From a virus, in the IMG/VR virus record IMGVR_UViG_3300045119_000370, positions 32,001 through 96,000 of that record: a stretch of DNA of 64,000 bases, one strand, 5' to 3'. The notes below the pieces were generated by a model. That model was given only the letters and a program-made list of their open reading frames with translations. It was not told the origin of the DNA and did not search any database. A program made the position numbers and the translations under genes. Within the stretch, counting starts at the first letter, position 1. The number at the start of each line of letters is the position of its first letter. Below, one piece after another: positions 1,323 to 54,228 of this stretch.

Positions 1323-1805
1323 ATGGCAATCTTCGCAACAGCTGGTTCCAAAATCTTCATCGGCGGTCCCAAGGACGCCGAGTCTGGCAGCTTCGACGTC
1401 AGCGATTTCGCCAGCCAGAGTTGGCAGGAAATCGGGTGGGCCGAAGCCATCGGCGAGTTCGGCGACGAGTCGTCCGAAATCACCTTCGATGCCATCGGCG
1501 AGGGTCGGACACAGAAGCTGAAGGGCATCCGCAACGCCGGCACCATGGCCGCTCGTTTCGGTATCTCGTCCGCCGATCTCGGCCAGATCGCGCTCCGCGC
1601 CGCCGAGGCAGTGCCCAACGACTTCGCCTTCCGCGTCGACTTCAACGACGCGCCCGTCGGTGGTCAACCCAGCCATCGCTATTTCGTCGCCAAAGTGATG
1701 AGCGCCCGCGAGGTGCTCGATACGGCCAATAACGTGGTTCGCCTCAACGCCAGCTTGGGTGTCAACTCGAACATCGTGCAGGTGCAGGCGGCCGCGTCGC
1801 TGTAA
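1323..1805 (+). CDS. Major tail (tube) protein
   Basis: Strong SD (AAAGGAG); IGEFGD...GRTQKLKGxRNAG motif typical of siphovirus tube proteins; synteny. Confidence 0.85.
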   Translation: MAIFATAGSKIFIGGPKDAESGSFDVSDFASQSWQEIGWAEAIGEFGDESSEITFDAIGEGRTQKLKGIRNAGTMAARFGISSADLGQIALRAAEAVPNDFAFRVDFNDAPVGGQPSHRYFVAKVMSAREVLDTANNVVRLNASLGVNSNIVQVQAAASL

Positions 1806-2656: not shown

Positions 2657-5600
2657 GTGGCGCAAGAGCTAGGCGAAGTAAATGTAGTTGTCCGTGTCGT
2701 CACTGGCGACATGGAGCAAAGCCTCGCGCGGGCACGCAAGTCGGCCGAGGACTTTTCCAACGCGTCGCAGGGGCACTTCAAGAAATCCGAAGCGGCGATG
2801 GAAGGCGCGCGCGCACAGGCTGAGCTTCTCAAGTTCGCGATGGATAAGCTGAAAGAGGCGATGGTCCTTGGTGGCGTCTCGCTCGGTATCGAGAAGGTCA
2901 TCGAGGTGACATCGGCATGGACCGATCTTAACTCTCGTTTGACCGAGTTGACCGGTTCGGGGAAACAGGCCGAGGCCGCTTTCAATCGGCTGATCGACGT
3001 TGCCAATCGTACTTACAGTTCGGTTGACCGCACTGTCGAGGGCTACCTCGAACTGAGCGAGTCACTGAAGGGTCTCGGACTGAGCAACAAGACGACGCTC
3101 GACTTCGTCGAAGCGTTGAACGATGCACTGGTGGTTTCGGGTGCCAAGGGTGAGCGCGCCGTTGCCGTGCAAGAAGCACTGACCCGCGCCATGGCGACCG
3201 GCTCGTTGCGTGGCTATCAATTGAACACGGTGATCCAGCGTGGTGGCAAGGTCGCCGAACTGCTGGCCGAGCAACTCGGCAAGACCGTGCCACAACTGCG
3301 CGAGTTAGGTAGAGAGGGGAAGATCACTGGTGACGTCATTTTGCAATCACTGGTCGGGAATATAGATGAATTGGGCAAGGCCGCCGACCGGATGCCGGCG
3401 ACGATGCTCGATGCCTTTTTGCGTGTTGGCAACTCGGTCGAGGAATTCATTTACAAGGTCGATAAAGGCACTGGCGGGACGAGCGCTCTCGCGGCTGGGC
3501 TGGTCGACGTTGCCAAAGCTATCCATGACTCGGTTGAGCCGGCTATTCGCCTGATCAACGGGTCTATGGAAGGCTTGAATAATATGATGACCGGGTTCGG
3601 TGTTAACTCGGCGGCGGCTGGTGAAATCGTCAGAGACGTTTTCGTAGTCATCATCGGCGGCGTCGCGGTGCGCGCCACAATAGCTTTGGCCGAGGCCATT
3701 GGCAGACAGCTGGTCGGGGCTGTCATGCTGCTTACTCGTGCCATGATCCTCAACCCGATTGGTCTGTTTATAACTGCCTTGGTGGCAGTGGGTGTTGCGG
3801 TCTACGAGTTGCGTGACAAGATCAAGACTGCGTTTGGCGTCGACGTCATGAAGGGGATGCAGGACTTCGGTAACGCGGTCATACGTGGTTTCCTGATCAC
3901 GTTCGATACAGTCAAATTACTGGTCGCTAGTTTCACGACTGATTTTTTGGCGACGTTTGCCAGACTGGGCCATTCGATGGCGCAGGTGTTGGTGTCTGGC
4001 TTCATCGCTGCAATGAACGCCATCACTGATTACCTTAATTCGCATCACCTCAGTGCAATCGCTGGCAATCGTATCAATCCCGACGATTTCAAATTGCCGG
4101 ACTCTCCCGCCGAGAAGTCCAAGGAACTTGATGATTTAACAAAATCTATCAATGAAGACATTCTGAAGGTGATGAAGACCGACTACATCAAGTGGTGGGG
4201 AGATTTGGCCGTTGGCGTCGATAAGGCTACCGACTCCACTGATAAGGCGGGCAAGGCGACCGAGCACATTACTGCCGAGACCGAAGCCCATGCCAAGGCG
4301 ATGGCCAAGCTCAAGTACGAATTAGACACTGCATGGTTCACGCCCGAGCAGAAGGCAGTCGCCGACGCCTTGCACAGTGTTTTCGACGATCAGTGGCAGG
4401 CGCACGCGAATGACGCTGTCGCCGTGATGGCGAAGTTTAACTTCGAAATACAACAGCAGAAGACCGCCCTCGATGGCATGAAGCAGACGGCCTTCCAGAT
4501 ACAAACCATGTTCATGTCGGCGGCCGATGCGGCGGCCGCGCAGGCCATGCACAGTGCATTCCCCGAAGACTGGGAAAAGCACATGCACGATGCCGCCGCC
4601 GAGATGGAGCGGTTCAATTCACATCTGAAGGACGCCTACAGTCTCACGCGCGATTTCACCGGCACCTTCGTGCACGGCCTCCTCGACGGCAAGACCGCCC
4701 TCGACAGCTTGAACGACGCCCTCAAGAATCTGGAAAACAAGATCATCGACATGGCGCTCGACGCCGTCGTGCAGGGCTTCTTCGCCATGCTTACGGGGAC
4801 CAGCGGCGGCACTGCTGGCAACATCTTCACGAATTTACTGGGCGCTGGCAAAGTCACCAGCGGTGTCAAAGAGGCCGGCATGTACGCGACCGGCGGCGTC
4901 GTCGGCAGCACGCCGGTCAAGAAATATCGTGGCGGGAAGCTGGCCTACGACGAGTACCCTGCCATCCTGCATATCGGTGAGCGTGTCATTCCGGCCGGTG
5001 GCGGCGAGCCGAGGATCAATCTGTCCGGCGAGCAGATGACCCGCATGTTCGGCGGCACGCCACGCTTCGACAGCGGCTTCAATGCCGCCGCCGCCGCCGC
5101 TGGTGCCTACACGGCTGGTGACACGGGTGCCCATGGCAGTTGGAGTACCGTCTCCGGTGGCGGCGGTAACGCTACACTGAGTGCATGGCAAGCCAGTCAA
5201 TATACTGGTCGTGGCGGTGGCGGCACCATGACCTTGCCGTCCGCCCGCCCGGGCGGTGGCGGCGGCAGTATCAGTCTTGGTGGTGGTGGCCGTAGAGGAG
5301 GCGGTCGGGCCGGCTCGCCTCGAATCGACCGGAGCTATATACCGAACTACAACCTCATTCGTCTTCTTCATCCGTTCGATCCGTTTGGCAACGCTGATAC
5401 ACGGATTTATCCAGAATTCGAGGCCGAGCAGGGTTGGGGTGGGCATCCTAATCCTTATACGACACCGGTATGGGCATGGCCGCAAGGTGGGGCTAACCGG
5501 TATGGTAAGGGCAACCGGCTTGATCGGCCCGAGCAGCCACCTTCCAGCTTGACCGAATGGGAACACCTTATCGGCGGCGGCTCGATCTTCCATGGTGGCG

Positions 5601-8239
5601 GCTACGTCGGCTCGACGCCGGTTCCGTTCCGCGCGCTGCCGATGAGTATGTTCATGGGCGCACCGTCCTTTGCGTGGGGGTTGAGTTACAGCGACCAAGG
5701 CAGTTACAACAACGCCAGCACCACTGGGACGACACCTAATCCGAGCTACGGCAGTTCCGGCACCAGCAGCCAGCCCACGTCGACGACGTCATACTCGTAC
5801 AGTGGTCCGGGCGCTGGTCTGAGTTCACCATCGTACTCTTACGCCTCGTCCGGTGCGAGCAGCAATGCGTCGACGTCGTACTGGTCACCTACCGCGACGA
5901 TGAGCAGTATGACACTGGGTTCTGGTTCCAGTTCCAGTTCATCGGCGTTTAGTGGTGTCAGTTCTGGGGCTTCGCTTGGTAGCGGGTCGTTCTCTTCGCC
6001 GTTCTCGTTTGGGGACTTGGCTGGGGCTGGGCGTGGCATAGCCAGTTTTGCTAATGCTATGATTTCACCAACACCGGCTTACGGCATGTCCGGTAGTAGG
6101 GGTTTTGATTCTCTTGTTGGGTCCAGTGCACTTGATACCCTTGCTGGGTTGGTGCCCACGCCGCTGGTCCGCCCCGGCACTCCTCCTCTGACTTTTGGGA
6201 TGCGGAATAGTCCGGCCGTTGCCGATTGGCAGCGAACACTGATCAGTCATGGCTACACTGTCAGTGTTGATGGTGACTATGGTCCCGAGACACTCGCAGC
6301 GACGCGGGCCTACGAGCGCGACAATTCGATGATGACCGGCGTGCCTATCCACAGGCCCGCTGGGGTTGTTGGGATACAGGACGTCATCAACGCGGGTCTG
6401 CGGACGCGCGGCATTATTTCTGGAGGTGGTTCGTTCGGCGTTCCGGGCCATGGACGTGGTCGTTTTGATTATGGTGGAGGCGGCTTTGGCGTCCCCGGTG
6501 GCCCGGTTCCGTCCGCCGGCATAACTCCAACTCCACTGCATTTCGCTGGTGGTGCGATACTGACCCCGGGGCTTTCTGATCTCCTCGCGGTCACGAACGA
6601 CTTTTCGGTGCTTGGCGATGAGATGGGCAGCTTATATCGCGGGCATGGACCGGGGAGGAGTCCGACAGGTCCGGCGGCACCAAGTTACGGTGGTGCCTTC
6701 CCTTGGGGCGTGCCCGGGGCGCGGGTAGGTTATCCCGGTGTCGGTGTACCGGCCTCGATGTCAGGCACTTTCGGCGACATACTGCATCCGCGTTTGGGCG
6801 GTGGTTATGTCGCGCCGACACCTCCAAGACCACCGGCACCTTATAATCCGGGGGCACTGCTTGCCGGTATCAATGCCCCGAATTGGTCGCTGGCTATGCG
6901 TCGTGCTGGTCTGTGGAAGCCGCCACCGAGTATTTTCAGTCCAGCACCGGGTGTTTTTCCGCCCGGCATGCCGCTGAATGTTCCGTTCCCGTCGATCACT
7001 TATGGGACTATTCCACCTTATCCGATGTTCCAGCCCAGTGCTCCCGGCCAGCCCGGAGGCGTAGGCTACGTGCCACCTCCTCCACCAGATGACAGCATTG
7101 GCGGTGTACTCAATGCGTTGGGAAGAGCCGCTGGCGCTGCTGGACGCTTTCTTAACCCGCTCACTATCTACGAGAGGATTTATGGTCCGCAGGGCAGTCT
7201 CAGTACGCCGCGTGGTGGCGGCTTGATGCAGTTGGCCGGATATTTTCCAGCCAACCCTTATGGTGGTGCCGTCGATCCGCATGGTTCACCACTAAACGCT
7301 TTTCCGCCAGCGGGGCTTTTCAACCGGTTTCCCAGCCCGTCGGGTGGTGGTGAGCAACGTTATTACAATAGGGAACAGTACGAGCGCGTTTACGGACCCA
7401 TCACCAACGAAGAGTGGCAGCAGTATATGAATGGTCGGAACGACCCTTCACTAGATAAGGGCGATGTGCCGACCAGTCGTTTGGTGTCGCCCGGCTTGTT
7501 GCAGATGGTGTCGGATATCCTACCGGGAGGCAGCGCGGGCGGAATTTTCATGCCGAGACTCAATCCTCCGGCCGCAGGGCTTTATCACGCACCATTTGTG
7601 TCCGCGATGCCTAGTGGTCTGACACCTGCTGGAATGCGTCGCTTGGGTGGTCAGTATCGTCAGCCATATGGTGAGCCGACTACCACTCTTGGTAAGGAGA
7701 TTAGGGACAGAAACGCTTTTTGGCCTAAGTCTACCCGTGACAATATGATGATACAATTACCTGAATTTCTTTATTCTACCGAGGCTTTCCGAAGACAGAT
7801 GATAGACCAAGGCGGTTCGTCATTGGGAGCGCAGTTGCATGGTGGTGGCGTCGTTGGGTCGACGCCGGTTCCACACCGCTGGGTCTCATCCAGTATATTC
7901 AAGCACGCGCCGCGCCTTCAGCATGGTCTTGCCGCCGATGAGTACCCTGCTATCCTCCATGCCGGCGAGACGGTGACCCCGGCATCCGGTCGTCCGAGAT
8001 CGTCGGGATCGCCAACGGTCGTCGTCAACACGCCGCCACAGCAGGCACCCGTTGTGACCGTCAACGTCATCAACAATTCCGGCGCTCAGGTTAATACTAA
8101 CTCGTCGCAGGAGAACGGCAACGTGCGGCTCGACATCGTACTTGATGAGATGGTCAGTGCGAAAATGCGCGATGGTGGCTCGCGCATCGCACGGACAATG
8201 TCGTCGATGGGTGCACGTGGACAACCAGTGAGGCGGTGA
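2657..8239 (+). CDS. Tape measure protein, 1860 aa, with large low-complexity insert and PG-binding domain
   Basis: N-terminal tape-measure domain (LVVSGA...ATGSLRGYQLN), hydrophobic helices, three xGGxVGSTPV motifs, and typical C-terminus (VNVINNSGAQV). Confidence 0.92.
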   Translation: MAQELGEVNVVVRVVTGDMEQSLARARKSAEDFSNASQGHFKKSEAAMEGARAQAELLKFAMDKLKEAMVLGGVSLGIEKVIEVTSAWTDLNSRLTELTGSGKQAEAAFNRLIDVANRTYSSVDRTVEGYLELSESLKGLGLSNKTTLDFVEALNDALVVSGAKGERAVAVQEALTRAMATGSLRGYQLNTVIQRGGKVAELLAEQLGKTVPQLRELGREGKITGDVILQSLVGNIDELGKAADRMPATMLDAFLRVGNSVEEFIYKVDKGTGGTSALAAGLVDVAKAIHDSVEPAIRLINGSMEGLNNMMTGFGVNSAAAGEIVRDVFVVIIGGVAVRATIALAEAIGRQLVGAVMLLTRAMILNPIGLFITALVAVGVAVYELRDKIKTAFGVDVMKGMQDFGNAVIRGFLITFDTVKLLVASFTTDFLATFARLGHSMAQVLVSGFIAAMNAITDYLNSHHLSAIAGNRINPDDFKLPDSPAEKSKELDDLTKSINEDILKVMKTDYIKWWGDLAVGVDKATDSTDKAGKATEHITAETEAHAKAMAKLKYELDTAWFTPEQKAVADALHSVFDDQWQAHANDAVAVMAKFNFEIQQQKTALDGMKQTAFQIQTMFMSAADAAAAQAMHSAFPEDWEKHMHDAAAEMERFNSHLKDAYSLTRDFTGTFVHGLLDGKTALDSLNDALKNLENKIIDMALDAVVQGFFAMLTGTSGGTAGNIFTNLLGAGKVTSGVKEAGMYATGGVVGSTPVKKYRGGKLAYDEYPAILHIGERVIPAGGGEPRINLSGEQMTRMFGGTPRFDSGFNAAAAAAGAYTAGDTGAHGSWSTVSGGGGNATLSAWQASQYTGRGGGGTMTLPSARPGGGGGSISLGGGGRRGGGRAGSPRIDRSYIPNYNLIRLLHPFDPFGNADTRIYPEFEAEQGWGGHPNPYTTPVWAWPQGGANRYGKGNRLDRPEQPPSSLTEWEHLIGGGSIFHGGGYVGSTPVPFRALPMSMFMGAPSFAWGLSYSDQGSYNNASTTGTTPNPSYGSSGTSSQPTSTTSYSYSGPGAGLSSPSYSYASSGASSNASTSYWSPTATMSSMTLGSGSSSSSSAFSGVSSGASLGSGSFSSPFSFGDLAGAGRGIASFANAMISPTPAYGMSGSRGFDSLVGSSALDTLAGLVPTPLVRPGTPPLTFGMRNSPAVADWQRTLISHGYTVSVDGDYGPETLAATRAYERDNSMMTGVPIHRPAGVVGIQDVINAGLRTRGIISGGGSFGVPGHGRGRFDYGGGGFGVPGGPVPSAGITPTPLHFAGGAILTPGLSDLLAVTNDFSVLGDEMGSLYRGHGPGRSPTGPAAPSYGGAFPWGVPGARVGYPGVGVPASMSGTFGDILHPRLGGGYVAPTPPRPPAPYNPGALLAGINAPNWSLAMRRAGLWKPPPSIFSPAPGVFPPGMPLNVPFPSITYGTIPPYPMFQPSAPGQPGGVGYVPPPPPDDSIGGVLNALGRAAGAAGRFLNPLTIYERIYGPQGSLSTPRGGGLMQLAGYFPANPYGGAVDPHGSPLNAFPPAGLFNRFPSPSGGGEQRYYNREQYERVYGPITNEEWQQYMNGRNDPSLDKGDVPTSRLVSPGLLQMVSDILPGGSAGGIFMPRLNPPAAGLYHAPFVSAMPSGLTPAGMRRLGGQYRQPYGEPTTTLGKEIRDRNAFWPKSTRDNMMIQLPEFLYSTEAFRRQMIDQGGSSLGAQLHGGGVVGSTPVPHRWVSSSIFKHAPRLQHGLAADEYPAILHAGETVTPASGRPRSSGSPTVVVNTPPQQAPVVTVNVINNSGAQVNTNSSQENGNVRLDIVLDEMVSAKMRDGGSRIARTMSSMGARGQPVRR

Positions 8240-8243
8240 CAGC

Positions 8244-8603
8244 ATGGCTGAGCTATGGCCCGATACACTGCCGCAGAAGCTGAACACGCAAGGTCACAGC
8301 TACAATCTCGGTGACCCCAGTATTCGATCCTCGCCGAGTGTGGGGCCGTCCAAGATACGACCGCGCTCGTCAGCAGTGTCCTCGCCGCTGCAAGGCATGA
8401 TGTATCTGTCGACGGCGCAGCTGGCCACTTTGAAGACCTTCTACAACATCACCGTGCGCGGGTCCGACGTGTTCATTTTCCCCGACCCGGAAGACCCCGA
8501 CAACAAGACACTCTTTTGTCGGTTCACTGGCCCGCCGGGTATCTCGGCGACGCAGGCGGCCAATATGTGGGCGGTCGGTTTGCCGATGGAGGTCATCCCG
8601 TAA
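8244..8603 (+). CDS. Distal tail / gpM-like protein
   Basis: WPDTLPQ...GPSKIRPRSSA...FIFPDP pattern; directly follows TMP. Confidence 0.7.
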   Translation: MAELWPDTLPQKLNTQGHSYNLGDPSIRSSPSVGPSKIRPRSSAVSSPLQGMMYLSTAQLATLKTFYNITVRGSDVFIFPDPEDPDNKTLFCRFTGPPGISATQAANMWAVGLPMEVIP

Positions 8604-9122
8604 ATGTCACGCCCTCTGACTCCAGCGATGATCCTAGCGTTGACCGGTCAGCAGACCGATGAGGTCTTCGTGGTGCTGGTCACCTTCTCATACCCCGCTG
8701 TCTCACCCACCACCGTATTGCGCTTTTCGTCCGACCCGACCGTGCGCCATTCGGTGACGCCATTGGTTTACAAGACGGTTTCTAACGGCCTCGATTACTT
8801 CTACGTGCCGATGGCGATCACGCTGCCCGGCGACACCATCGATTCGCCTACCAGTGCTCAGCTGAGTGTTTCGAACGTCGGCCTCGAACTGATCAACATC
8901 CTGCGCTCGATGAACGTCGGCGACAAACCGGCGTCGGTCGACATGAACCTCGTACTGGCGTCGGACCCGAACACCATCGGCTACAACATCCCGACGATGG
9001 ACATGGTCCAAGCCGATTGGGACGAGCAGTCAGTCAATCTGACGCTCAACATCGAGGCGCTCGACCGCGAGCCGTTCCCCGCCGGCAATTTCGACCCGAG
9101 TTGGTTTCCGGCGCTGTTCTGA
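8604..9122 (+). CDS. Tail tip protein (DUF1833/gpL-like)
   Basis: ITLPGD...SNV...EPFPAGNFDPSWFPALF C-terminus; synteny. Confidence 0.75.
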   Translation: MSRPLTPAMILALTGQQTDEVFVVLVTFSYPAVSPTTVLRFSSDPTVRHSVTPLVYKTVSNGLDYFYVPMAITLPGDTIDSPTSAQLSVSNVGLELINILRSMNVGDKPASVDMNLVLASDPNTIGYNIPTMDMVQADWDEQSVNLTLNIEALDREPFPAGNFDPSWFPALF

Positions 9123-9538
9123 TGGCTGACCCATTCGACGAGTTCGTCGGCATCCCGTTTCTGGACCGTGGCCGGACGGTCGAGGGTGCCGATTGCTGGG
9201 GCCTGTTTCGGCTGGCCCTACTTAAAGTCGCCGGTCTGGAGTTGCCGGCCTACGACGAGCATTATGCGTCGTGCGTCGAACGCCGGGCCAACGCCGACAT
9301 GATCCAAGGGGTGATAGGAGACTGGCAGGAGGTGCCTGCGGGGGGCGAGGAGCGCTTTGACGCGATCCTGATGAGGGATGGTCGCTTCGACAGCCACATC
9401 GCGCTGGTGACGCGCCCCGGGCGTATGCTGCACACGTATCAAGGCGGGCAATCGTGCGTCGACCGCTACCTTAACAGCCCATTCCGCGAGAGGATCGTCC
9501 GCTTCTACCGGCACCGCTCGCTGCTCAAGGACGGATAG
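9122..9538 (+). CDS. NlpC/P60 tail tip protein (gpK-like)
   Basis: VGIPFLDRGRTVEGADCWGL...HIAL...MLH catalytic pattern. Confidence 0.88.
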   Translation: MADPFDEFVGIPFLDRGRTVEGADCWGLFRLALLKVAGLELPAYDEHYASCVERRANADMIQGVIGDWQEVPAGGEERFDAILMRDGRFDSHIALVTRPGRMLHTYQGGQSCVDRYLNSPFRERIVRFYRHRSLLKDG

Positions 9539-32791: not shown

Positions 32792-33081
32792 GTGTTCTTG
32801 ACACCATCCCCGATGACGTCAAGGTCGAGTACATCGCGCTGCGTGTCCTCTCGGACGGTCGCGTGATCGGGGTCATGCGGCTGCTCTTTCATTGGACCCT
32901 ACACGTTGACGTCGATTGGTACGGCTACAACGACCGCTACTGTTACGCGACGTTGGAGCAGGCCATGGCGGGGTTCAATCAGTGGACCGGGGACGGCGAG
33001 CCGAGCGGCTGGCACCGACACGTCAAAACCGGAAGGCGTCGGCCGAACGGCAACCCGGCGCTGGAGTATGTCAATTTCTAA
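32788..33081 (+). CDS. Conserved phage hypothetical protein
   Basis: GYNDRYCY...WTGDGEPSGWHRHVKTGRRRPNG. Confidence 0.65.
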   Translation: MSVLDTIPDDVKVEYIALRVLSDGRVIGVMRLLFHWTLHVDVDWYGYNDRYCYATLEQAMAGFNQWTGDGEPSGWHRHVKTGRRRPNGNPALEYVNF

Positions 33082-34652
33082 ACTTTCTCGATGCCGCGCA
33101 CGATGGCGTCGAACAGGTTCATGCCGGCCTTGTAGAAGGCGAGGATGCGCTGATCCATGGTGCCGGTCACCACTAGATCGTACAGGAACACGCGGTCGTG
33201 CGGCGAGTTCTGGCGCTCGAACCGGCGGATCATTTGCTTCCGCGTGATCACCGGGACCGGTGACTCGTAGAAAATCCCGTACTGCGCCGCTTGCAGGTTC
33301 AGGCCGTAAGCGCCGGCCGTCGACAAGACGAAGACGCGCAGACGTGGATCGCTTTCGAAGCGTTGCAGGAGGCCGGCGGCATTGGTCTGCTTGCCACCAT
33401 ACTTGATGTGGCTGATGCCGGCCGTGGTCAGCGCCGCCGTGATCACCTCGCCACTGTGGACGAAATCGTGGAAGACCAGAATCTTGCGGTCCTCACGGAT
33501 CGAATCGATCAGTGCCATGAGCGTGTCGAGCTTGGGGTTCTCCGGGAAAACATAGTGTGCCTTCTCGCCGTTGTCGTCGTCATGGTAGCCGACGAAGCCG
33601 GACGATATCTGGCGCATCCTGAGAAAGGCGTTCTTCATCTCGCGATAGCTGCCCTTCGCCTCCATGATCACGGTGCGCGCGCGCTGGTAGTACTCTTGCG
33701 CATCGGCGGGCAATCCCACCTCGCGGACGATGTGGCTGAGCACCGGCAGTGTGCTCTGCTCGACCTCGTAGCGGATCGAGCCATGGGCGAGCAGCCGGTT
33801 GAGCTTGGCCATGTTCGCTTTGGTGTCGTCGAAGCTCCACTCTTGACCGCCGAAGGCGTTCTCCTTGCTCTTGTAGAGCGCGGCGCGGAACAGACCGAGC
33901 GTCTCGCCGAGCGAGTAGCCGCCATCGACCAGATACATCTGCGCCCACAGGGGCGTAGGATCGCGCCCGAAGGGGGTGCCAGCGAGCAGAAAGAAGATGC
34001 CGGCCTCGTTGCCCAGCCGGCGGCAAATGCGAAAGGGCAGGGTGTCGTGAGCGCCGACATGGTTGCTCTCGTCGCAGACGACGCCGTCGACGTGCTTCTG
34101 GAGGCGCTTGACCAGCCTCTCGTCGATGATCAGCTTGTCCACCGGCACAGCCCGGCCGCCACGTTTGCGCTTGACCGTCTTCAGCGGGCTGACCATGCGG
34201 GCCAGCCCGGCATAGGTCTCGACCACGATGGACGCGCGCGCCGATTCCAGCTGCTCCCACTTCTCGGCGCTCGTGCCGCGCAGGATGGTGTACTTGGTAT
34301 TCGGCGACCACTTCTGAATCTCTTTCTCCCACGAGTCTTTGACGATCTTGTAGGGGACCAAGACCAGCACGGTGTCGACAACGTCGAGGCGGCGGAAGTA
34401 TCTGGTCAGTGCGATGGTCAGCAGGGTCTTGCCCATGCCAGTGTCCACCCAGAAGGCGGCGCGACGGCGCATCGCGCCAATCAGAAAGCAAACCTTCTGT
34501 TCGAGGCGCAGTGTGTACCAGATCGGCGGCATCACTGGCAGCGTGCACATCAGTGCGTCGAGTTCAGCGTCGTCGAGCTTCTTCCAGTCGCGCAGGTCGT
34601 CGCGCTCGCGGTCGAGGAACTTCTCGATGGCCCTTTTGGGAATGATGCCCAT
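33078..34652 (-). CDS. SNF2-family helicase
   Basis: DTGMGKT, CDESN, LAGTP, LRMRQISSGF, NPKL, GLNLQ, QMIRRFER. Confidence 0.9.
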   Translation of the reverse strand: MGIIPKRAIEKFLDRERDDLRDWKKLDDAELDALMCTLPVMPPIWYTLRLEQKVCFLIGAMRRRAAFWVDTGMGKTLLTIALTRYFRRLDVVDTVLVLVPYKIVKDSWEKEIQKWSPNTKYTILRGTSAEKWEQLESARASIVVETYAGLARMVSPLKTVKRKRGGRAVPVDKLIIDERLVKRLQKHVDGVVCDESNHVGAHDTLPFRICRRLGNEAGIFFLLAGTPFGRDPTPLWAQMYLVDGGYSLGETLGLFRAALYKSKENAFGGQEWSFDDTKANMAKLNRLLAHGSIRYEVEQSTLPVLSHIVREVGLPADAQEYYQRARTVIMEAKGSYREMKNAFLRMRQISSGFVGYHDDDNGEKAHYVFPENPKLDTLMALIDSIREDRKILVFHDFVHSGEVITAALTTAGISHIKYGGKQTNAAGLLQRFESDPRLRVFVLSTAGAYGLNLQAAQYGIFYESPVPVITRKQMIRRFERQNSPHDRVFLYDLVVTGTMDQRILAFYKAGMNLFDAIVRGIEKV

Positions 34653-44668: not shown

Positions 44669-44867
44669 CCGACGAATGTCGGTCATGGTGGGCGGCCACA
44701 CCGCCCCTTCTAGCTAGGGAGCCTCAAAGATTCTTTTGCCGGATTCGGTTGTGAGCATCACAACGCGAATCCCTCTCAGTCATCCAACTGAGAATACTGG
44801 AATGCCGCCTGAGCCAAGGCGGTCGTGTGCGAATCCCTCCCCGGACCCGCCCTGACTGTCTTGGCTC
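44669..44867 (+). ncRNA. Candidate structured leader/ncRNA upstream of primase
   Basis: Five hairpins, a duplicated GCGAATCCCTC and loop-downstream complementarity. Confidence 0.35.
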
Positions 44868-44884
44868 TTTTCCCCGAGCTATCA

Positions 44885-45919
44885 ATGGTGCGCGCATTGG
44901 CTTTCGATTTTCTCGAATTCTTCCGCCGTCATCGCATCGAGTATGCGACCAGCGGCCCGTCGGTGACCAAGAACAACGTCGCCATACACTGTCCTTTCTG
45001 TGGTGGGTCCGATCACAGCCAGCACATGGGTGTCAGCCTACTCGGCAAGGGGTGGCGCTGTTGGCGCAACCCCGGTGAGCACAAGGGCCGTCACCCGTTC
45101 CGGCTGGTCAGGGCGCTCTTGGGCTGCTCGACTGCCGAGGCCATGCGGATTACTGGATCGTCGCATGTGCCGGTGTCCACGGACCTTCTGGAGCGTGTCA
45201 GAGGTTTATTGGAGCCGGAAGAGGCCGGCGAGGAGGAGTCCGAGCCACCGGACCTGCCAGCCACGTTCCGCCGCCTGATCGATGGTCTGCCGGCGTCGCG
45301 GCCGTATCGTGAGTATCTGGCGACGCGCGGCTACACCGACGAAGACCTGCCATGGCTGGATTGGCTGGGCCTGCGCTATGCCACCCGGGGAGCGTGGAAG
45401 GGTCGCATCCTGTTTCCGGTGTGGGTTTATGGCACACTGATGTCGTGGACCGGTCGCACCATCTGGCCAAGCGAGGAACTGCGTTATCGGACACTGTCAA
45501 TCGACCCGGTGAAAGCCAAGTATGGCGGCGACCGCCCGGCGCTGGGACCGATCAATCATAACCTTCTATGGCACGATAGACTGCTCGACTCCGACGCCAA
45601 CACCTTGGTTGCGGTCGAAGGGCCGTTTGACGCACTGCGGGTGATGCAGGTGGCCGGTGACGATGGTGTCGACGCTACCTGTCTGTTCAGTGCGCTGCCC
45701 ACCGAGGCGCAGGTCAATCTGCTCTACGACGTCCTGCCGCGCTTCAAGCGTAGTTACTTGCTGCTCGACAACGACATGATGCACACCTCGTTGCGCGTCG
45801 GTTGGGACCAGCTGTCTGCGATTGGACTGGAGCCACGCTTTTTGCCGCGCGGTTTGAAAGACCCCGGCGACGTCAGGTTAACACGTGATCGGCTTTGGTC
45901 CGCACTCGTAACAAACTGA
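44885..45919 (+). CDS. DNA primase (Zn finger + TOPRIM)
   Basis: CPFC..D..H...WRCWR; GRILFP; GRTI; VEGPFDAL; LLDND; KDPGD. Confidence 0.85.
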   Translation: MVRALAFDFLEFFRRHRIEYATSGPSVTKNNVAIHCPFCGGSDHSQHMGVSLLGKGWRCWRNPGEHKGRHPFRLVRALLGCSTAEAMRITGSSHVPVSTDLLERVRGLLEPEEAGEEESEPPDLPATFRRLIDGLPASRPYREYLATRGYTDEDLPWLDWLGLRYATRGAWKGRILFPVWVYGTLMSWTGRTIWPSEELRYRTLSIDPVKAKYGGDRPALGPINHNLLWHDRLLDSDANTLVAVEGPFDALRVMQVAGDDGVDATCLFSALPTEAQVNLLYDVLPRFKRSYLLLDNDMMHTSLRVGWDQLSAIGLEPRFLPRGLKDPGDVRLTRDRLWSALVTN

Positions 45920-47001: not shown

Positions 47002-48096
47002 ATGAAGCGTAAAGACCTGCTTGACTTGTTGGCCGAGGTGCGGCCGGCATTGGCGACGAGTGAATCGCTCAGTCCGCTGTTCACCCATTACTGCTTCGAT
47101 GGCAAATATCTGACGGCCTACAACGGTGCAAGTTTGGGGGTCACGGTACCCTTCACCAGCCCGTTCAAGGGTGGCGTCCCCGGCAAGACGCTCGACGATC
47201 TGCTGACCCACATCAGCGACGACGATGTGACCATCACACCGGGCAACGGCAATATCGAGATCAAGGCCGGCAAGGCCGTGATGACGCTGGCCACCATCCC
47301 GGCCGACGATCTTGCTTCGGTGTTCGAGAAGGAGTTCTCCGAGGCCGAGGGTCAGGAGATCAAGGCGACCGGCAAGGAGTTGCTCGGCGCGGTCAGCTGT
47401 TGCCTCAACTCGCTGGGAGCCGACGCCGGCCGAAGCGACCAGACCGGACTCCTGTTCCGCCGCGACAAGGACTTTCTGGTGGTCTACGGCTTCAACAACA
47501 TCTCGTTGTCGGTGGCCGAGGTGCCACTGGATGGTGACAGTCGGGGACTGTCCGAGGAAGGCGTCCTCCTGCCCGGCGTGTTTTGCAAGCGGATGGTCGA
47601 TTACCTCAAGGCCGACAATGCCGTGCGCTTCGAGATCGGCGAGCGCTATGCGATGTTTTCCACCGGAAAAGTAAACGTTTACGGGACTTTAATTCCGCGT
47701 CCGACTAAGATTGATTACGACAAGATTTTGGACGATAATTTCCCCACAGCGGATTCGAAAAAGCTTGTCGCCATCCCGGACGGCCTGAAAAAGGCGCTCG
47801 AACGGGCTTGCGTCATCGTCAATACCAAGCTTGACGGAAAGCTGAGAACGGAGGTCGAGGTGAAGGCTGGCACTGCCAGATTGTTTTCACGCTCGGCTCG
47901 TGGCGAGGTCGAGGACATCGTCGAGCTTCCCAATCATCCCGATGTCAAGCTGGCCATCGATCCGCGACCGGTGCTCGACGCGATGCCGTTTTTCGGTGTT
48001 GGTGGTCGAGTGCTGTTCGAGCATAAGTGTGCAGTGTTGAACCGTAAGGCGCAGACCTACATGGTCGCCGCCTTCCAACCTTCCAACAATAAGTAG
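47002..48096 (+). CDS. Sliding clamp (DnaN/beta-like)
   Basis: 364 aa; LTAYNG...VPGKTL..LL pattern; three-domain size; next to Pol and clamp loader. Confidence 0.75.
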   Translation: MKRKDLLDLLAEVRPALATSESLSPLFTHYCFDGKYLTAYNGASLGVTVPFTSPFKGGVPGKTLDDLLTHISDDDVTITPGNGNIEIKAGKAVMTLATIPADDLASVFEKEFSEAEGQEIKATGKELLGAVSCCLNSLGADAGRSDQTGLLFRRDKDFLVVYGFNNISLSVAEVPLDGDSRGLSEEGVLLPGVFCKRMVDYLKADNAVRFEIGERYAMFSTGKVNVYGTLIPRPTKIDYDKILDDNFPTADSKKLVAIPDGLKKALERACVIVNTKLDGKLRTEVEVKAGTARLFSRSARGEVEDIVELPNHPDVKLAIDPRPVLDAMPFFGVGGRVLFEHKCAVLNRKAQTYMVAAFQPSNNK

Positions 48097-48283: not shown

Positions 48284-50878
48284 ATGGGATTTATCGTCGG
48301 CCGTTTGCGCCGTGAGCAAACACCAACCAAGGGCGTGTCGCTGGGACTACTGCATCGGCACGAATGTTCAGTCTGCCCGCTCAATCGTGCTCCCAATCTC
48401 AAGAACGCCAAGATGCCACCCAACGGCAACCCCAAGCCGCTGGTCTACATGCTGGGCGAAGCACCCGGTGAGCAGGAGGACCGGTATGGCGAGGCTTTCA
48501 TTGGACCGTCAGGTGAGTGCCTGCGCTCACATATCGAGGATGACTGGATCAAGTCCTTGCGATGGTCGAACACGATACGCTGCCGGCCGACCGAGAAATC
48601 CAAGGAGAGCGGCAAGACGATCAACCGCGAACCGACCAATGTCGAGATCGAGTGCTGCCGGCCCAAGCTGATCAGAGATATTCAGGAGACCAAGCCGGTC
48701 GCCATCTTCGGCTTCGGCAACGTCCCATTACACTGGGTGACTGGCGAGGCCGGCATCACCAAGTGGCGCGGCAAGCGCTTGCCGGTGACCATCGGCACGC
48801 ACACTTGCTGGTACTACCCGATGTACCACCCGAGCTACATCCTGCAAATGCAGGAGGAGATGCGCGGCCGCGACTTGGAGTTCGCTTTCGACATGGACCT
48901 CAAGCGTGCCTTCGCCGAGGTCGACGCCGGCCTACCCGAGCCGGTCGTGCACACTGCCGAGATCGCCCACGCCGACGTCGAGATCATCACTGGCGAGCAT
49001 GGTGATGCCGACGTCGACCGCGTGCTCAACTTCCTCGACCAGTGCAAGCAGTTCGAGGTGGTCGGCCTCGATTACGAGACCAAGGGCAAGCGGCCTTATG
49101 GCGACACCGTCAAGCTTCTCACCATCGCTATCTCGAACGAGACGCGCAGTGTGGCCTTCGCGTTCAACCATGCGCGGGCTGGGTGGACCAGCCGACAACG
49201 AGAGCGCATCACCAAGGGCTTCTTGGATTTCCTGTGCTCCTCGCCAGAAACACGCAAAGTGGCGCACCACCTCGCCTACGAACTGGAATGGTCGGCGCAC
49301 TTCTTCGGTCCCGAGGTCATCTACGAGAACCGTTGGGGCGACACCATCAGTCAGGCGTTCATTCTCGATGAGCGGCAGGGCGCACTGAGTCTGGAGTTCC
49401 TTTGCTGGCAGCACTTCGGCATCAACGTCAAGGCGCTCTCGCCGGAATTCAACAAGGAGGACATCGAGCAGGAAGACCTGAGCGACGTGCTCACTTACAA
49501 CGCCATCGACGCCAAGTACGCCCGGGTGCTCTACCATGCGCAGAAGCGGGAGCTAAAGGACGAGAAACTGATCGAGGTCTACGCGCACCATATGCGACGT
49601 GTGCAGGCGACCGTGGCCACGCAGCTGAAAGGGGTGCCGGTCGATCAGGATCGTGTCGCCGAGTTCTACAAGCAGTACAGGGACGAGCTTGACATCATCG
49701 AGGCCGACATCGCGGCGCTGCCCATGGTCAAGCAGTACAACATCAGCCACAAGGACTTCCGACCGTCAGCGCCGCAAAACCTCGTCGATATACTGCGCAA
49801 GGAGGGCATCCACCTCGACACCACCAAGGAAGGCGAACTGGAGAAGTATGCCGGCACGCCGATCATCGATCTGGTGCTCAAATGGCGCGGCGTCAACAAA
49901 CTGCTCTCGACCTACGTCAAGCCGCTGCTGAGCATGGAGACGGCACAGCGGCTCGCCGTCCCCGAGTTCACTATCAAGGACACCGTCATTCACGACGATG
50001 GTCTGATGCATCCGATCATCTCGACGGTGAAGACGCGCACGTGGCGGACCAGTGCCGAGGAACCCAACGAGCAGAATTTCCCCAAGCACGAGAACCGCCA
50101 AGTGCGGCGCATGATCAAATCGCGCAACGCGCAGCGCAAGGTCGTCAGCTTTGACTATGCCGGCATCCAAGCCCGCAACATTGCCATGGAGTCGCGCGAC
50201 GACGCTTTGGTCAAGGCGTTCTGGGATCGTTACGACATCCACACCGATTGGATGGAGCGCATCGAGCGGCGGGTGCCGGGCTGGATCAAACTGACCGACG
50301 ACCATGACAAGAAATACTGGCGCAATCGGGCCAAGAACGGTTTCGTGTTCCCGTCCTTCTTCGGGGCGCAGCCGAAAAAGACGTCCGGCGAGTTGGGCAT
50401 CGACATCAGCGACAGCGAGCGTCTGCAAGGCGACCTGTGGGAGATGTTCCCGAATGTCCATGGTTGGCAGAAGCGGCTCAGGGACGATTACTACAAGCGC
50501 GGCTACGTCACCGGGCTGAGCGGCTTCCGCAGGCGTGCACCAGTGTCACCGAACGAATTGATCAATGCACCCATTCAAGCCGACGAGGCGATCATCGTAC
50601 TCACCGCCATGGCCGAGCTTGCCGAGATGGGCGATCCGCGTTTCGTCGCCAATATGGAAATCCACGACGACCTGACGTTTTTCTGGCACGTCGACGAGAT
50701 CGAGCGCAACGCTGAAACAGTTATCGACACCATGCTCAACACGCCATATGAGTGGGCGCACATCGTACCTATCGGAGTCGAGATGGCGGTCGGTGACGAC
50801 TGGGAGAGTGTCAAGGGCGTCGGCGAGTACTTCTCGGACCAGTGGTCAGGGAGAATACCCAAGAAGGTGGCGGCATGA
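48284..50878 (+). CDS. polA: Family A DNA polymerase with N-terminal family-4 UDG-like domain and 3'-5' exonuclease (SPO1-type architecture)
   Basis: CSVC, GEAPG, CRP, HPSY; DYET, YNAID; TWRTS..PN.QN, DYAGIQAR, R..AK, NAPIQ, IHDD. Confidence 0.92.
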   Translation: MGFIVGRLRREQTPTKGVSLGLLHRHECSVCPLNRAPNLKNAKMPPNGNPKPLVYMLGEAPGEQEDRYGEAFIGPSGECLRSHIEDDWIKSLRWSNTIRCRPTEKSKESGKTINREPTNVEIECCRPKLIRDIQETKPVAIFGFGNVPLHWVTGEAGITKWRGKRLPVTIGTHTCWYYPMYHPSYILQMQEEMRGRDLEFAFDMDLKRAFAEVDAGLPEPVVHTAEIAHADVEIITGEHGDADVDRVLNFLDQCKQFEVVGLDYETKGKRPYGDTVKLLTIAISNETRSVAFAFNHARAGWTSRQRERITKGFLDFLCSSPETRKVAHHLAYELEWSAHFFGPEVIYENRWGDTISQAFILDERQGALSLEFLCWQHFGINVKALSPEFNKEDIEQEDLSDVLTYNAIDAKYARVLYHAQKRELKDEKLIEVYAHHMRRVQATVATQLKGVPVDQDRVAEFYKQYRDELDIIEADIAALPMVKQYNISHKDFRPSAPQNLVDILRKEGIHLDTTKEGELEKYAGTPIIDLVLKWRGVNKLLSTYVKPLLSMETAQRLAVPEFTIKDTVIHDDGLMHPIISTVKTRTWRTSAEEPNEQNFPKHENRQVRRMIKSRNAQRKVVSFDYAGIQARNIAMESRDDALVKAFWDRYDIHTDWMERIERRVPGWIKLTDDHDKKYWRNRAKNGFVFPSFFGAQPKKTSGELGIDISDSERLQGDLWEMFPNVHGWQKRLRDDYYKRGYVTGLSGFRRRAPVSPNELINAPIQADEAIIVLTAMAELAEMGDPRFVANMEIHDDLTFFWHVDEIERNAETVIDTMLNTPYEWAHIVPIGVEMAVGDDWESVKGVGEYFSDQWSGRIPKKVAA

Positions 50879-51349: not shown

Positions 51350-52321
51350 ATGGTCAAGCGTATCGTCGAGGTCGAGCCGCCGCGTGGCGGCACTCTTTAC
51401 AACACATATAGACCGAAGCTGTTCAAGGAGGTCATTGGCCAAGAGTTGGTGGTCAACGCGCTGGTCAAGATTTTGCAGAAGGACGCAGCGCACACCTTCC
51501 TGTTCACGGGACCGTCGGGAGTCGGCAAGACAACGTTGGCCCGATTGTCAGCGAAGTTCGTGCGCTGCGCTCCGCAAGATATCGTCGAGATCGCGGCGGC
51601 GGTCAATACCGGCGTCGATGCCATGCGTGAAATCCAAGCGGCGGCGGACTATCAGCCGTTCGGTGGCGAGAGCAAGGCGATCATCCTCGACGAGGTCCAG
51701 CGGCTGAGCAAGCCGGCATGGGAATCGCTGCTCAAGGCGTTGGAGGAGCCGGCATCGCACACTTACTGGTTCCTGTGCACTACCGAGCCGGACAAGGTGC
51801 CGAAGACCGTCACCACACGTGCGGTCAGTTTCAAGCTCAAGCCGGTCGCCGACGCGGACATGCGCGACCTCTTAGCCGACGTTTGCAACAAGGAGGGCAT
51901 CGAGCTTGCCGGCGACGTCGACAACCTCCTGATCAGTAATGCCGGCGGCTCACCTCGTCAGCTGCTCAGCGATCTCGCCATGGTGCGTGATGCCGAGAGC
52001 AAGGCATCGGCGGCGGCACTCTTGTCGACGGCAGTCGAGAGTGAGCCAGTGCGTGAACTGTGTCGGATGCTGAGCGACGGCAAGGGCAGCTGGCAGAAGG
52101 CGATGGCCATCGTCGCCAAAATACTGGATGAGCAAGAACCGGAAGAGGCCCGCATCTTGGTGTGTCGCTACATGGCGGCCGTGGCGATCAGTGCGACCAA
52201 CGACCGCGCCGCGCAGCATGCGTGCATGGTGCTCGATTTCTTTCGTGCGCAGTTTTTCAGTGGCGAGGGCGCTGCCCCTTTAATTTTAGCAATCGGAAAC
52301 GTTTTGCTGGCAAACCGCTGA
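51350..52321 (+). CDS. dnaX: Clamp loader (DnaX gamma/tau-like)
   Basis: YRP..F.EVIGQ, GPSGVGKTT, IILDEV, LLKALEEP, CTTEPDKVP. Confidence 0.88.
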   Translation: MVKRIVEVEPPRGGTLYNTYRPKLFKEVIGQELVVNALVKILQKDAAHTFLFTGPSGVGKTTLARLSAKFVRCAPQDIVEIAAAVNTGVDAMREIQAAADYQPFGGESKAIILDEVQRLSKPAWESLLKALEEPASHTYWFLCTTEPDKVPKTVTTRAVSFKLKPVADADMRDLLADVCNKEGIELAGDVDNLLISNAGGSPRQLLSDLAMVRDAESKASAAALLSTAVESEPVRELCRMLSDGKGSWQKAMAIVAKILDEQEPEEARILVCRYMAAVAISATNDRAAQHACMVLDFFRAQFFSGEGAAPLILAIGNVLLANR

Positions 52322-52346: not shown

Positions 52347-52913
52347 ATGGTAGACCGTTTGCAGCCCGAGAAGCCGGCCGTATCGAGACTGACACTCGAC
52401 CAGCTGGAAGGCGACCTCAAGATCGACGAGTACGCGCTCAACGACGTGTGTCGTGAGCACCCGACGCTGTTTTATCGGGTCGCCCGCGAACTGGCTTTCG
52501 CCATCTCGCGTCGCGACGCCGCCAAGGTCGAACTGGAAAGGACCGAGGGCCAGATAACCCTGTCCATGCGTGATCAGGCCCGCGACGTTGGTGAAAAAAC
52601 CACGGTCGACGAGATCAAGGCGCGGGTCCGCGAGAGCAATCAGTACATGACAGCTGCCGAGCGGTTGGCCATGCGGCAGATGGAAGTCGGCGAATGGGCG
52701 GCGCTAAAGGAAGCCTACGGGCAGCGTAGCTACGCATTGAATCACATGGTCGACCTGTACCTCGCCAATTACTATGGCAACATCGAGCGACGCGAGAGCG
52801 TCGAGGATCGCGAGCGCAACGCCGACCGCGCCCGTGAGCGGCTGGCCGAGATGCGTCGCGCCGCTCCCTATAACAGGACCAGAAGAGAGGAAGATTCAGA
52901 TGGTAGAACGTAA
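52347..52913 (+). CDS. UvsY-like recombination mediator
   Basis: DLKIDE..L...; helical; LYLANYY; located upstream of SSB and RecA. Confidence 0.6.
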   Translation: MVDRLQPEKPAVSRLTLDQLEGDLKIDEYALNDVCREHPTLFYRVARELAFAISRRDAAKVELERTEGQITLSMRDQARDVGEKTTVDEIKARVRESNQYMTAAERLAMRQMEVGEWAALKEAYGQRSYALNHMVDLYLANYYGNIERRESVEDRERNADRARERLAEMRRAAPYNRTRREEDSDGRT

Positions 52914-54228
52914 CCGACCGGACGACGACCGGGGCCGCAGTGGCGGCAGCACTCGTGGAAAATGGCATTACGAACCGCAGAAGGCCGAAGACATCCGGGC
53001 GCGGGCGACGCGCACCAGTGGTCGCTTCGACAGTATCTTCAAGCCGGGCTTCGACACGTTCCGTCCCAAGGGTGGCGATAACTTGGTCCGCTTCCTGCCC
53101 GGCACGTGGAACTTGGGCGTAGCTTACGCTTACGACGTCTGGGTCCATCGTTACGTTGGTCCTGACGACTCGACGTATCTCTGTCTCGACAGAATGCTCG
53201 GCAAACAATGTCCGATCTGCGATGCGGCGGCCGAGGCCAAGCGTGCCAAGGATGACGAGGAAGCCAAGCAGCTGCGTGTGCTCCAGCAGGGCGTCGCATG
53301 GATACTCGACCGGCGTGGCGAGATGCCGAAGCAACCGCTCTTGTTTCAGATGAGCCGGACCCTCGACAGCACCATCCTGTCTTTGACTAACATCAAGGAG
53401 CAGATTTGGATCGATAACCCGACTGAAGGGTTCGATGTGACCATCAAGCGTTCGGGCACCGGTCTGAACACGCGCTACATCGCTGCCATCGACCGTGATC
53501 CGTCGCCGATTGCCGAGAAGCAGCGCGACTTCGACAAGATCATGGACTACATCGAGACAAACCCCCTCGACACCGTGCTCCATTACTTCGACGCCGACTA
53601 TCTCGACCGGGTCATGTCGGGGACTACCGGCCCGCGTGATGACAAGGAGGAGGTACGCGGCCGCGAGCGCGAGCGTGATGATCGGGACGAGCGTGAGGAA
53701 CCCCGCCGTGACCGCGACCGTGATGGTGAGCGGGACGAGCGGGCGGTGCGCAGCCGGCGTGATGAACCAGAACCGGAGCGCGCACGATCCAGCCGGCGTG
53801 ACGAGCCGGAACCGGATCGCGAGGAGCGCTCGCCAAGGCGTGGGCGTGATGAGCCGGAACCGGATCGCCCGGGCCGTAGGGCGGCCCGTGACGAGGCCAA
53901 GGACGAGGAGGACGAGGATCGGGCCGGTCGTGGCCGGCGCGAGCCTGACGACGCTCCCAGCCGCCGGGACCGGCGTTCTGACCCGGAGGAGGAGGATCAG
54001 GCGCGGGATGAGCGTCGCGCACGCGGCAATGGTGCTCGTAGGGACGACAAGGACGAACCACCTTTCGATGCCGATCCCCCGGCACGCAGCCGTCGCGAGC
54101 GTGCCGACGAGGATGAGGAAAGCCGTCCCCGTCGCAGCGTAGAGCGTCAGCGGCCGGACGATGAACCGCGTGCGGCCCGGCGCGGTGACGATGATGAAGA
54201 GGACCGCCGGCCGCCGCGTCGTCGCTGA
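52900..54228 (+). CDS. gp32-like single-stranded DNA-binding protein with long R/D/E mixed-charge tail
   Basis: NLVRFLP, HRY...CL...CPIC, EGFDVTIKRSGTGLNTRY; ~200-aa charged tail. Confidence 0.8.
   Translation: MVERNRPDDDRGRSGGSTRGKWHYEPQKAEDIRARATRTSGRFDSIFKPGFDTFRPKGGDNLVRFLPGTWNLGVAYAYDVWVHRYVGPDDSTYLCLDRMLGKQCPICDAAAEAKRAKDDEEAKQLRVLQQGVAWILDRRGEMPKQPLLFQMSRTLDSTILSLTNIKEQIWIDNPTEGFDVTIKRSGTGLNTRYIAAIDRDPSPIAEKQRDFDKIMDYIETNPLDTVLHYFDADYLDRVMSGTTGPRDDKEEVRGRERERDDRDEREEPRRDRDRDGERDERAVRSRRDEPEPERARSSRRDEPEPDREERSPRRGRDEPEPDRPGRRAARDEAKDEEDEDRAGRGRREPDDAPSRRDRRSDPEEEDQARDERRARGNGARRDDKDEPPFDADPPARSRRERADEDEESRPRRSVERQRPDDEPRAARRGDDDEEDRRPPRRR

Follow-up and report, generated by a model that had tools for sequence, protein, structure and literature searches.

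We analysed the tape measure protein (TMP) gene P0001 in a window of 64,000 nucleotides, i.e. the whole stretch of DNA considered here, which covers positions 32,001 to 96,000 of IMGVR_UViG_3300045119_000370, a 117,742-bp IMG/VR virus record from an uncultured soil phage. The analysis reveals that the short motif with which TMPs of this type normally end occurs three times in the 1860-aa product, with two inserts between the copies, that this architecture is conserved in a family in which the inserts vary as a mosaic, and that the motif is a widespread end-unit of TMPs able to repeat. In our best reading, P0001 is a lambda-type TMP whose C-terminal piece has expanded from ~120 to ~1120 residues, as a counterpart of lambda gpHC or T5 pb2C. 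That this enlarged, tip-proximal piece acts at the cell wall and has its modules exchanged at the repeated motif is an explanation towards which we lean, with appreciable doubt.

The common view of TMPs is that of rulers, some of which have a lysin embedded in them. In P0001 and its relatives, a conserved short peptide marks a fixed slot close to the tail tip, at which hundreds of residues are inserted, swapped or deleted with the ruler and the tip anchor undisturbed. If this peptide is a processing or docking element, the 50-year-old question of where and how lambda gpH is cut would become testable through mutagenesis of lambda, and the slot would offer a natural site for loading extra protein into a siphophage tail. 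As the load found here looks modest, apparently a disordered spacer with a candidate cell-wall-binding domain, P0001 illustrates the principle more than it represents a new effector system. A literature search, which did not cover subscription papers, found no publication on terminal-motif repeats that fence TMP inserts.

The terminal motif and its three copies

A lambda-type TMP normally ends in four successive parts: the pre-terminal helices are followed by a Gly linker, then by a motif of ~50 aa and finally by a tail of ~80 aa. The motif combines three elements, A (H.GG.VG), B (F..APR.H.G) and C (DE.PAIL..GE.V.P), and its consensus in an alignment of 34 sequences (alignment A1), H.GG.VG….P.R.VP…F..APRLH.GLA.DE.PAILQ.GETVIPRG, contains 11 invariant columns. 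An earlier note, made from the letters of the window, had placed three copies in P0001, and all three were recovered there, in agreement with the coordinates that it gave. A regular-expression scan of the translation located GGxVGSTPV at aa 746, 981 and 1730 (nt 4892, 5597 and 7844), DEYPAILHxGE at aa 765 and 1761, and PxFxxG at aa 802 and 1003, while a hidden Markov model (HMM) of the motif, built from the collected TMPs, was used to score each copy (Table 1). Copy 3, which ends 84 aa before the C-terminus, agrees with all 11 invariant columns of alignment A1.

At the DNA level, copies 2 and 3 form a direct repeat (D1; 5588-5665 versus 7835-7912, 71% identity) and a second one pairs 4940-4995 with 7928-7983 (73% identity). 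The same codon is used at just 4/9 to 7/11 of the residues that are identical between copies; synonymous positions have thus diverged, which indicates copies of old date whose protein sequence is maintained by selection, and rules out a recent DNA duplication as their origin.

AlphaFold2 modelled the C-terminal motif region with a mean predicted local distance difference test (pLDDT) score of 62.9 and gave no fold for the motif (pLDDT 50-79), which, taken alone, is predicted to be unstructured. A Foldseek search with this low-confidence model returned no match at E <= 0.001.

Occurrence of the motif in other tape measure proteins

A phmmer search of 1.84 billion representative sequences with aa 1715-1860 of P0001 returned 1049 proteins at E <= 1e-3. 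The motif HMM was applied to 156 sequences (155 proteins and L002p, a relative introduced below), a set that was picked by likeness to the query rather than comprising all 1049 matches, of which 150 were listed, and that includes fragments, which can conceal copies. The motif was found in 155 of them, once in 131, twice in 16, three times in 7 and four times in 1. The claim that it normally closes this type of TMP is borne out, given that a single copy is present in 131/155 and that in complete single-copy TMPs, such as P0018, P0020 and P0155 (859-925 aa), ~60-110 aa separate it from the C-terminus; the shorter P0017 and P0019 are probably fragments.

The sole solved-structure entry with the motif in its sequence is chain Q of PDB 8VJH, a TMP of 1431 aa that was identified as that of phage Chi through PMC11945409. 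It was found only with the profile of alignment A1 (aa 1270-1373, E = 7.5e-16), single-sequence PDB searches with the motif-1 and motif-3 regions having given nothing meaningful, and it differs from P0001 in having one motif copy, ~60 aa from the end.

How P0001 relates to such single-motif proteins is best seen in P0155 (859 aa). Residues 654-839 of P0155 align to aa 646-817 of P0001, which comprise the pre-motif helices and copy 1 (E = 1e-17), and its residues 742-859 align to aa 1727-1860, which hold copy 3 and the entire tail up to the final residue (E = 3e-17). Since the one motif of P0155 matches both copy 1 and copy 3, P0001 can be described as a normal TMP with ~985 aa inserted at a duplicated motif.

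Multi-copy proteins number 24, of which 11 belong to the family of P0001 and 13 lie outside it, in lineages with PhageMin_Tail, TMP_3, SLT or Tape_meas_lam_C domains; of 14 other multi-copy TMPs, 6 gave a Tape_meas_lam_C match, which in one case scored below the cut-off. The spacers between copies in the outside proteins range from a few residues to several hundred. A partial copy limited to A and B and followed by a spacer, as in P0001, also occurs in the unrelated TMPs P0053 and P0059, and P0085 carries a tandem array with two copies 3 aa apart. In P0029 (1921 aa), four mini A elements (FHKGG…FHLGG…LHTGG…FHGGG) stand in a row at aa 1795-1835 before the final C element, so that the H.GG unit can be iterated alone.

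Conserved blocks and variable inserts

The two inserts, put at ~170 and ~720 aa in the earlier note, measure 169 aa (insert 1, aa 809-977, 22% Gly) and 717 aa (insert 2), and both begin directly after a B element. The description of insert 1 as a Gly-rich cargo holds for its composition and fails for its opening ~45 aa (FNAAAAAAGAYTAGDTGA…SGGGGN…ASQY), which are conserved in most relatives; as 7 of 10 blastp alignments extend to aa 850 or beyond, this part is mainly scaffold and not variable cargo. The cysteine count of the whole of P0001 is 0.

Contig L002 (IMG/VR) encodes L002p, a protein of 1872 aa with the same three-copy layout, and nine further relatives of 928-2058 aa have the common design, most of them with TMP_2 as the N-terminal domain instead. 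Two blocks are kept in all ten relatives, block I (aa ~600-850) and block II (aa ~1725-1860), whereas the distance from the first to the last motif ranges from 290 to 1124 aa, for pre-motif lengths of 479-858 aa. Between P0001 and L002p, identity amounts to 56-90% in the flanks versus 14-58% in the inserts: the cargo varies between fixed motif copies, a point that the earlier note had proposed to check. Sharing is patchy. L002p and P0004 have copy 2, the Ser tract and the peptidoglycan (PG)-binding-like domain described below in common with P0001, P0002 shares only aa 1522-1650 of the insert, and P0003 and P0021 share a weak Gly/Pro-rich stretch. A PDB sequence search with the sub-block aa 1522-1650 gave no match. 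Among cultured phages, a search with the whole of P0001 gave N-terminal matches only, with 0 of 572 records covering 80% of the query, and a tblastn search with the 146-aa C-terminus found a single weak record.

The GC content at third codon positions (GC3) falls to 0.55-0.56 in the inserts, versus 0.70 in the ruler part and 0.75-0.76 in the neighbouring tail genes. This drop is seen within single amino acids (Pro, 0.60 versus 0.81-0.89; Val, 0.56 versus 0.74-0.92) and hence reflects codon choice, not composition. The codon shift that the earlier note had seen in the larger block is therefore present in the cargo, but it is not specific to it: the ruler stretch aa 401-500 (3857-4156) shows a dip as well (GC3 0.57-0.62) and is likewise poorly conserved (identity to L002p 0.24-0.36), so that low GC3 goes with weak conservation in general and does not single out foreign cargo.

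Contigs from four soil-metagenome runs, belonging to other samples and studies, span the insert junctions. Record 3 of run X3 covers 4745-6431 with 0 differences, running from copy 1 through insert 1 and copy 2 into the first part of insert 2; record 28 of run X6 (5784-8237) spans insert 2, copy 3 and the C-terminal tail, and record 24 of the same run covers 4700-5698. As these independent contigs bridge the junctions checked, the region is not an assembly chimera, an artefact for which the earlier note had allowed. Short contigs in four soil runs match 31-65 nt (4741-4779, 4937-5001, 5020-5056), which fall in the pre-motif helix, in the DEYPAILH element or in that with MFGG, beyond which they continue into unlike sequence, one continuation resembling the L002-type variant. 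Related TMP genes thus co-occur in these soils, with near-identical DNA only at the conserved junction.

Tandem DNA repeats within the inserts are limited to two tiny arrays. A GTTCCA hexamer array of 2.7 copies lies at 5925-5940, in the Ser-rich tract, and run X6 has a 6-nt in-frame deletion exactly there. The variants in run X6 are mostly C/T transitions and do not suggest adenine-targeted variation of the diversity-generating retroelement type.

Content of the inserts

Pfam, PHROG and TIGRFAM-type scans of P0001 and its inserts gave no match to enzyme or toxin families. Their only recognisable domain is a putative PG-binding-like mini-domain in insert 2, which is found at the same place in P0004 (23.0 bits, equal to the cut-off) and in L002p (20.2 bits), and whose segment gave 3 weak PDB matches, among them a fusion with a cell-wall hydrolase and a chain that bears the name peptidoglycan-binding domain 1. 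The AlphaFold2 model of aa 1150-1725 averages a pLDDT of 34.2; 504 of its 576 residues score under 50, and only the PG-binding-like helices and aa ~1570-1593 reach 61-73; the inserts are predicted to be mostly a disordered, Gly/Ser/Pro-rich spacer. A search for stand-alone relatives of insert 2 among shorter proteins found none, its matches being limited to P0008, a fragment from the window itself, and to a TPR protein judged spurious, and the ESM Atlas gave no usable match for aa 1150-1725. The proposal in the earlier note that the inserts are effector segments is weakened by these results, i.e. the lack of enzyme or toxin matches, the mostly disordered state predicted for them and the lack of stand-alone relatives, and the recognisable parts point to cell-wall binding. 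The inserts probably help the tail to cross the cell wall rather than deliver toxins.

Three relatives carry a conserved ~140-aa segment directly before the last motif (P0003 aa ~1470-1610, P0006 aa ~965-1110 and P0007 aa ~1260-1420), which bears VTEGY..GH..S.H..G.GAVD…D.MH.D, an H-x6-D…H signature. Its sole matches were weak ones to hedgehog N-domains in the PDB (E = 0.16-0.8), which we take to have the LAS zinc-peptidase fold, and Pfam found 0 families in the three segments. The slot of these relatives may hold a zinc-peptidase signature, which we regard as a possible lead only.

Comparison with known systems

Lambda gpH resembles P0001 in the order of its parts, in which an N-terminal TMP domain, a ruler and pre-terminal helices precede a Gly-rich linker, after which come a motif of the form GG…PA.I.H.GE.V and a short tip-binding tail (PMC12617516). 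It is cut near the Gly-rich region, near residue ~690, into gpH* and the ~14-kDa gpHC, residues ~690-817 not being resolved, and both the cleavage site and the protease are described as still not known (PMC12617516). The order along gpH is Tape_meas_lam_C (aa 627-701), the Gly-rich stretch, an FATGGFTG… motif (aa ~733-758) and YATGGYVG (aa ~779), and at the pattern level its motif resembles copy 1 of P0001, i.e. A-C without B. The tip genes of the window are also lambda-like, with an NlpC/P60 gene at the gpK position and a gpJ-like fibre. In contrast, the N-terminal domain is TMP_3 in P0001 and TMP_2 in gpH, and gpH has one degenerate A-C motif plus the second YATGGYVG, with just ~160 aa past the cut zone, whereas P0001 has ~1120 aa and three copies.

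T5 pb2 offers a second parallel, with a ruler bearing a hydrophobic stretch and then a C-terminal piece, which in pb2 is aimed at the cell wall and anchored in the tip by its last residues (PMC10038345). Mass spectrometry placed the cut in pb2 after R1127, with the hydrophobic stretch on one side and the muralytic motif on the other, and pb2C stays in the tip through its last 35 residues (PMC10038345). By analogy with the structures of T5, T1 and lambda, the C-terminal tail of P0001 (aa 1777-1860) is presumed to be the tip anchor (PMC10038345, PMC11945409, PMC12617516). The likeness to T5 is one of layout. pb2C is a piece of 92 residues with a metallopeptidase motif, whereas P0001 shows a PG-binding-like domain and no catalytic motif. 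Judged by position, P0001 beyond aa ~720 would correspond to gpHC or pb2C.

TMP-like carriers with exchangeable modules are also known from the Sle1-type TMP-related effectors of actinobacterial contractile injection systems, which have exchangeable C-terminal domains and are packaged in the tail-like particle (PMC13277306). Those systems differ from P0001 in being contractile, intracellular machines of another lineage, with no common motif shown. Mycobacteriophage TM4-type TMPs, in the work of Piuri and Hatfull in 2006, reportedly embed peptidoglycan-hydrolase motifs that are dispensable for ruler function, and these are not said to be fenced by terminal-motif repeats.

Interpretation and alternatives

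In the explanation that we prefer, the motif has been triplicated, and the two inserts between its copies would consist mainly of disordered spacer, a PG-binding-like mini-domain and a small conserved block. Once ejected from the tail, the enlarged piece would work in the periplasm and the cell wall, where it may bind, span or locally open peptidoglycan, as proposed for T5 pb2C. Inserts would be gained, lost and exchanged through recombination at the repeated motif. By analogy with lambda and T5, the maturing tail may also see cleavage at one or several sites next to the motif.

Several points weigh against this explanation. The PG-binding matches in P0001 fall below the Pfam cut-off, Pfam, PHROG and other family scans found no catalytic domain in its inserts, and the disorder prediction rests on a 4-sequence alignment. 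The score of the motif HMM on lambda gpH is not significant, the likeness being at the pattern level only, and Pfam gives no Tape_meas_lam_C match in P0001 at E <= 0.1, a domain present in lambda gpH and P0018; despite this, the region of P0001 upstream of the motif aligns to P0155. AlphaFold2 predicts no separate fold for the motif, and this reading does not account for the lowered GC3 of the inserts.

Alternatively, each motif copy could be a maturation cleavage site, making P0001 a processed polyprotein in which the ruler is separated from two or three fragments that the tail lumen would store and that would enter the cell as factors in their own right. Tail maturation in lambda and in T5 includes a cut close to the C-terminus of gpH and pb2, respectively (PMC12617516, PMC10038345), the motif lies ~40 aa downstream of the estimated cut position in lambda, for which neither site nor protease is known, and a peptidase-domain gene of the NlpC/P60 type stands two genes downstream of P0001. 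Moreover, every insert opens directly behind a B element and closes where an A element begins, the arrangement of A-B then spacer recurs in the unrelated P0053 and P0059, and the motif alone is predicted to be unstructured, as a protease-accessible linker would be. However, position is the sole argument for cleavage here, and the inserts lack effector-like domains; in P0085, whose copies are 3 aa apart, cutting at every copy would release little beyond one ~50-aa motif. We consider the polyprotein unlikely. That the motif is the recognition or cleavage element of TMP maturation, for the class in which gpH gives gpH* and gpHC, and that its multiplication creates a self-segmenting carrier releasing each insert as a periplasm-active fragment on ejection, appears quite improbable to us.

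P0001 could also be a plainly extended ruler, all 1860 aa of which set the tail length, with low-complexity stretches for length tuning and motif repeats as by-products of unit duplication. The opinion in the earlier note that the cargo is unlikely to act as a ruler is less secure than it seemed, since a 2026 survey reports polyG/S/A/T tracts in 95.5% of TMPs and a correlation of their content with measured tail length (PMC13585406). TMPs are described as evolving through unit duplication and loss (PMC3271669), and any polypeptide in the tube lumen would occupy length. Yet the inserts lie downstream of the ruler end in single-motif TMPs and of the cut positions in lambda and T5, their summed Gly, Pro and Ser content of 27-57% is incompatible with a helical ruler, the total length of relatives varies over 928-2058 aa against 479-858 aa for the pre-motif part, and a PG-binding-like domain would have no role in a ruler; together these make a simple extension decidedly unlikely. 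We find it very improbable that the inserts are tolerated junk, i.e. fast-evolving, near-neutral low-complexity expansions at a permissive site and with no function of their own. Their identity to the closest relative (0.14-0.3 over aa 1301-1700), a GC3 as relaxed as in the poorly conserved ruler stretch aa 401-500, the disorder predicted for most of the insert and the 6-nt length variant of the Ser tract in one run would fit such drift, but the reading frame is open over 2.9 kb in 11/11 family members, sub-blocks are kept (aa 1522-1650 are 68% identical to P0002, and 3 proteins have the PG-binding-like domain), and the motif copies are held by selection.

Gene identity, tail module and source phage

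P0001 is identified as a TMP by its N-terminal TMP domain and by its position between the major tail protein and the tip genes (Table 1).

Table 1. Features of P0001 and of other genes in the window (aa numbers refer to P0001 unless the gene is a different one)
Feature	Position (nt)	Strand	Evidence or remarks
Major tail protein	1323..1805	+	phrog_158, E 2e-18; upstream of the TMP gene
TMP gene P0001, 1860 aa	2657..8239	+	Open reading frame (ORF) and translation; Pfam TMP_3 E 9.8e-47; 20 PHROG TMP families at E <= 0.01
N-terminal TMP_3 domain, aa 80-270	2894..3466	+	Pfam PF20155, 159.6 bits (cut-off 41); TIGR02675 at aa 154-228, 48 bits
Hydrophobic, membrane-segment-like stretch, aa 319-386	3611..3814	+	Kyte-Doolittle 19-aa windows >= 1.6; sole such stretch in P0001
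Conserved block I, aa ~600-850: pre-motif helices, Gly linker, motif copy 1, Ala/Gly block	4454..5206	+	10/10 relatives, 43-61% identity; aligns to pre-terminal region of P0155
Motif copy 1, order A-C-B', aa 743-808: A YATGGVVGSTPV (aa 743-755), C DEYPAILHIGERVIP (aa 763-780), B' MFGGTPRFDSG (aa 796-808)	4883..5080	+	HMM 30.7 bits
Variable part of insert 1, aa 851-977, Gly-rich	5207..5587	+	20-36% identity to L002p; GC3 0.56
Motif copy 2, A-B only, FHGGGYVGSTPV…FMGAPSFAWG, aa 978-1009	5588..5683	+	HMM 55.9 bits
Insert 2, aa 1010-1726, 717 aa: Ser-rich tract, then Gly/Pro-rich region	5684..7834	+	Gly 16%, Pro 13%, Ser 12%; GC3 0.55; 14-58% identity to L002p per 50-aa window
Peptidoglycan-binding-like mini-domain (putative), aa 1185-1228	6209..6340	+	PG_binding_1 18.2 bits (cut-off 23), PG_binding_3 20.1 bits (cut-off 24.6); endolysin PHROGs E 2e-5; pLDDT 61-73
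Conserved sub-block of insert 2, aa 1522-1650	7220..7606	+	68% identity to P0002 aa 1375-1499; short helices aa ~1570-1593, pLDDT 62-69
Motif copy 3, complete A-B-C, LHGGGVVGSTPV…FKHAPRLQHG…DEYPAILHAGETVTPA, aa 1727-1776	7835..7984	+	HMM 95.0 bits; fits alignment A1 consensus
C-terminal tail, aa 1777-1860, presumed tip anchor	7985..8236	+	78-90% identity to L002p; kept to the last residue in the family and P0155
Two small tail-tip genes, 119 aa and 172 aa, at the lambda gpM/gpL position	8244..9122	+	phrog_384 and phrog_396, minor tail protein
NlpC/P60 peptidase-domain tail protein, gpK position	9017..9538	+	Pfam PF00877, E 2.6e-6, 27.8 bits, above cut-off
Central tail fibre, gpJ-like, 1766 aa	9541..14841	+	phrog_31, E 4e-92; Pfam FNIII-A_GpJ and Phage-tail_3
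Helicase	33078-34652	-	Replisome gene
Primase	44825-45919		Replisome gene
Sliding clamp	47002-48096		Replisome gene
DNA polymerase	48284-50878		Replisome gene
Clamp loader	51350-52321		Replisome gene
SSB-like protein	52774-54228		Replisome gene
UvsX-like recombinase	54228-55328		Recombination gene
SbcD/SbcC-like nuclease	57925-58989, 59627-61486		Recombination genes
DNA methyltransferase	61712-62875		Part of the replication and recombination set

A Pfam scan of the two small tail-tip genes gave 0 matches. The second of them (ORF 8604-9122) and the NlpC/P60 ORF (9017-9538) share 106 nt as called; as the NlpC/P60 domain begins at residue 48 of the latter, its true start is probably further downstream. 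Pfam detected no JAB/MPN domain in this ORF, in contrast to lambda gpK, which carries one.

The source is a large siphophage and not a host island. A replication and recombination set spans 33078-62875 of the window and includes a complete phage replisome. A genome of 117.7 kb and a lambda-like tail tip are thus combined in one phage.

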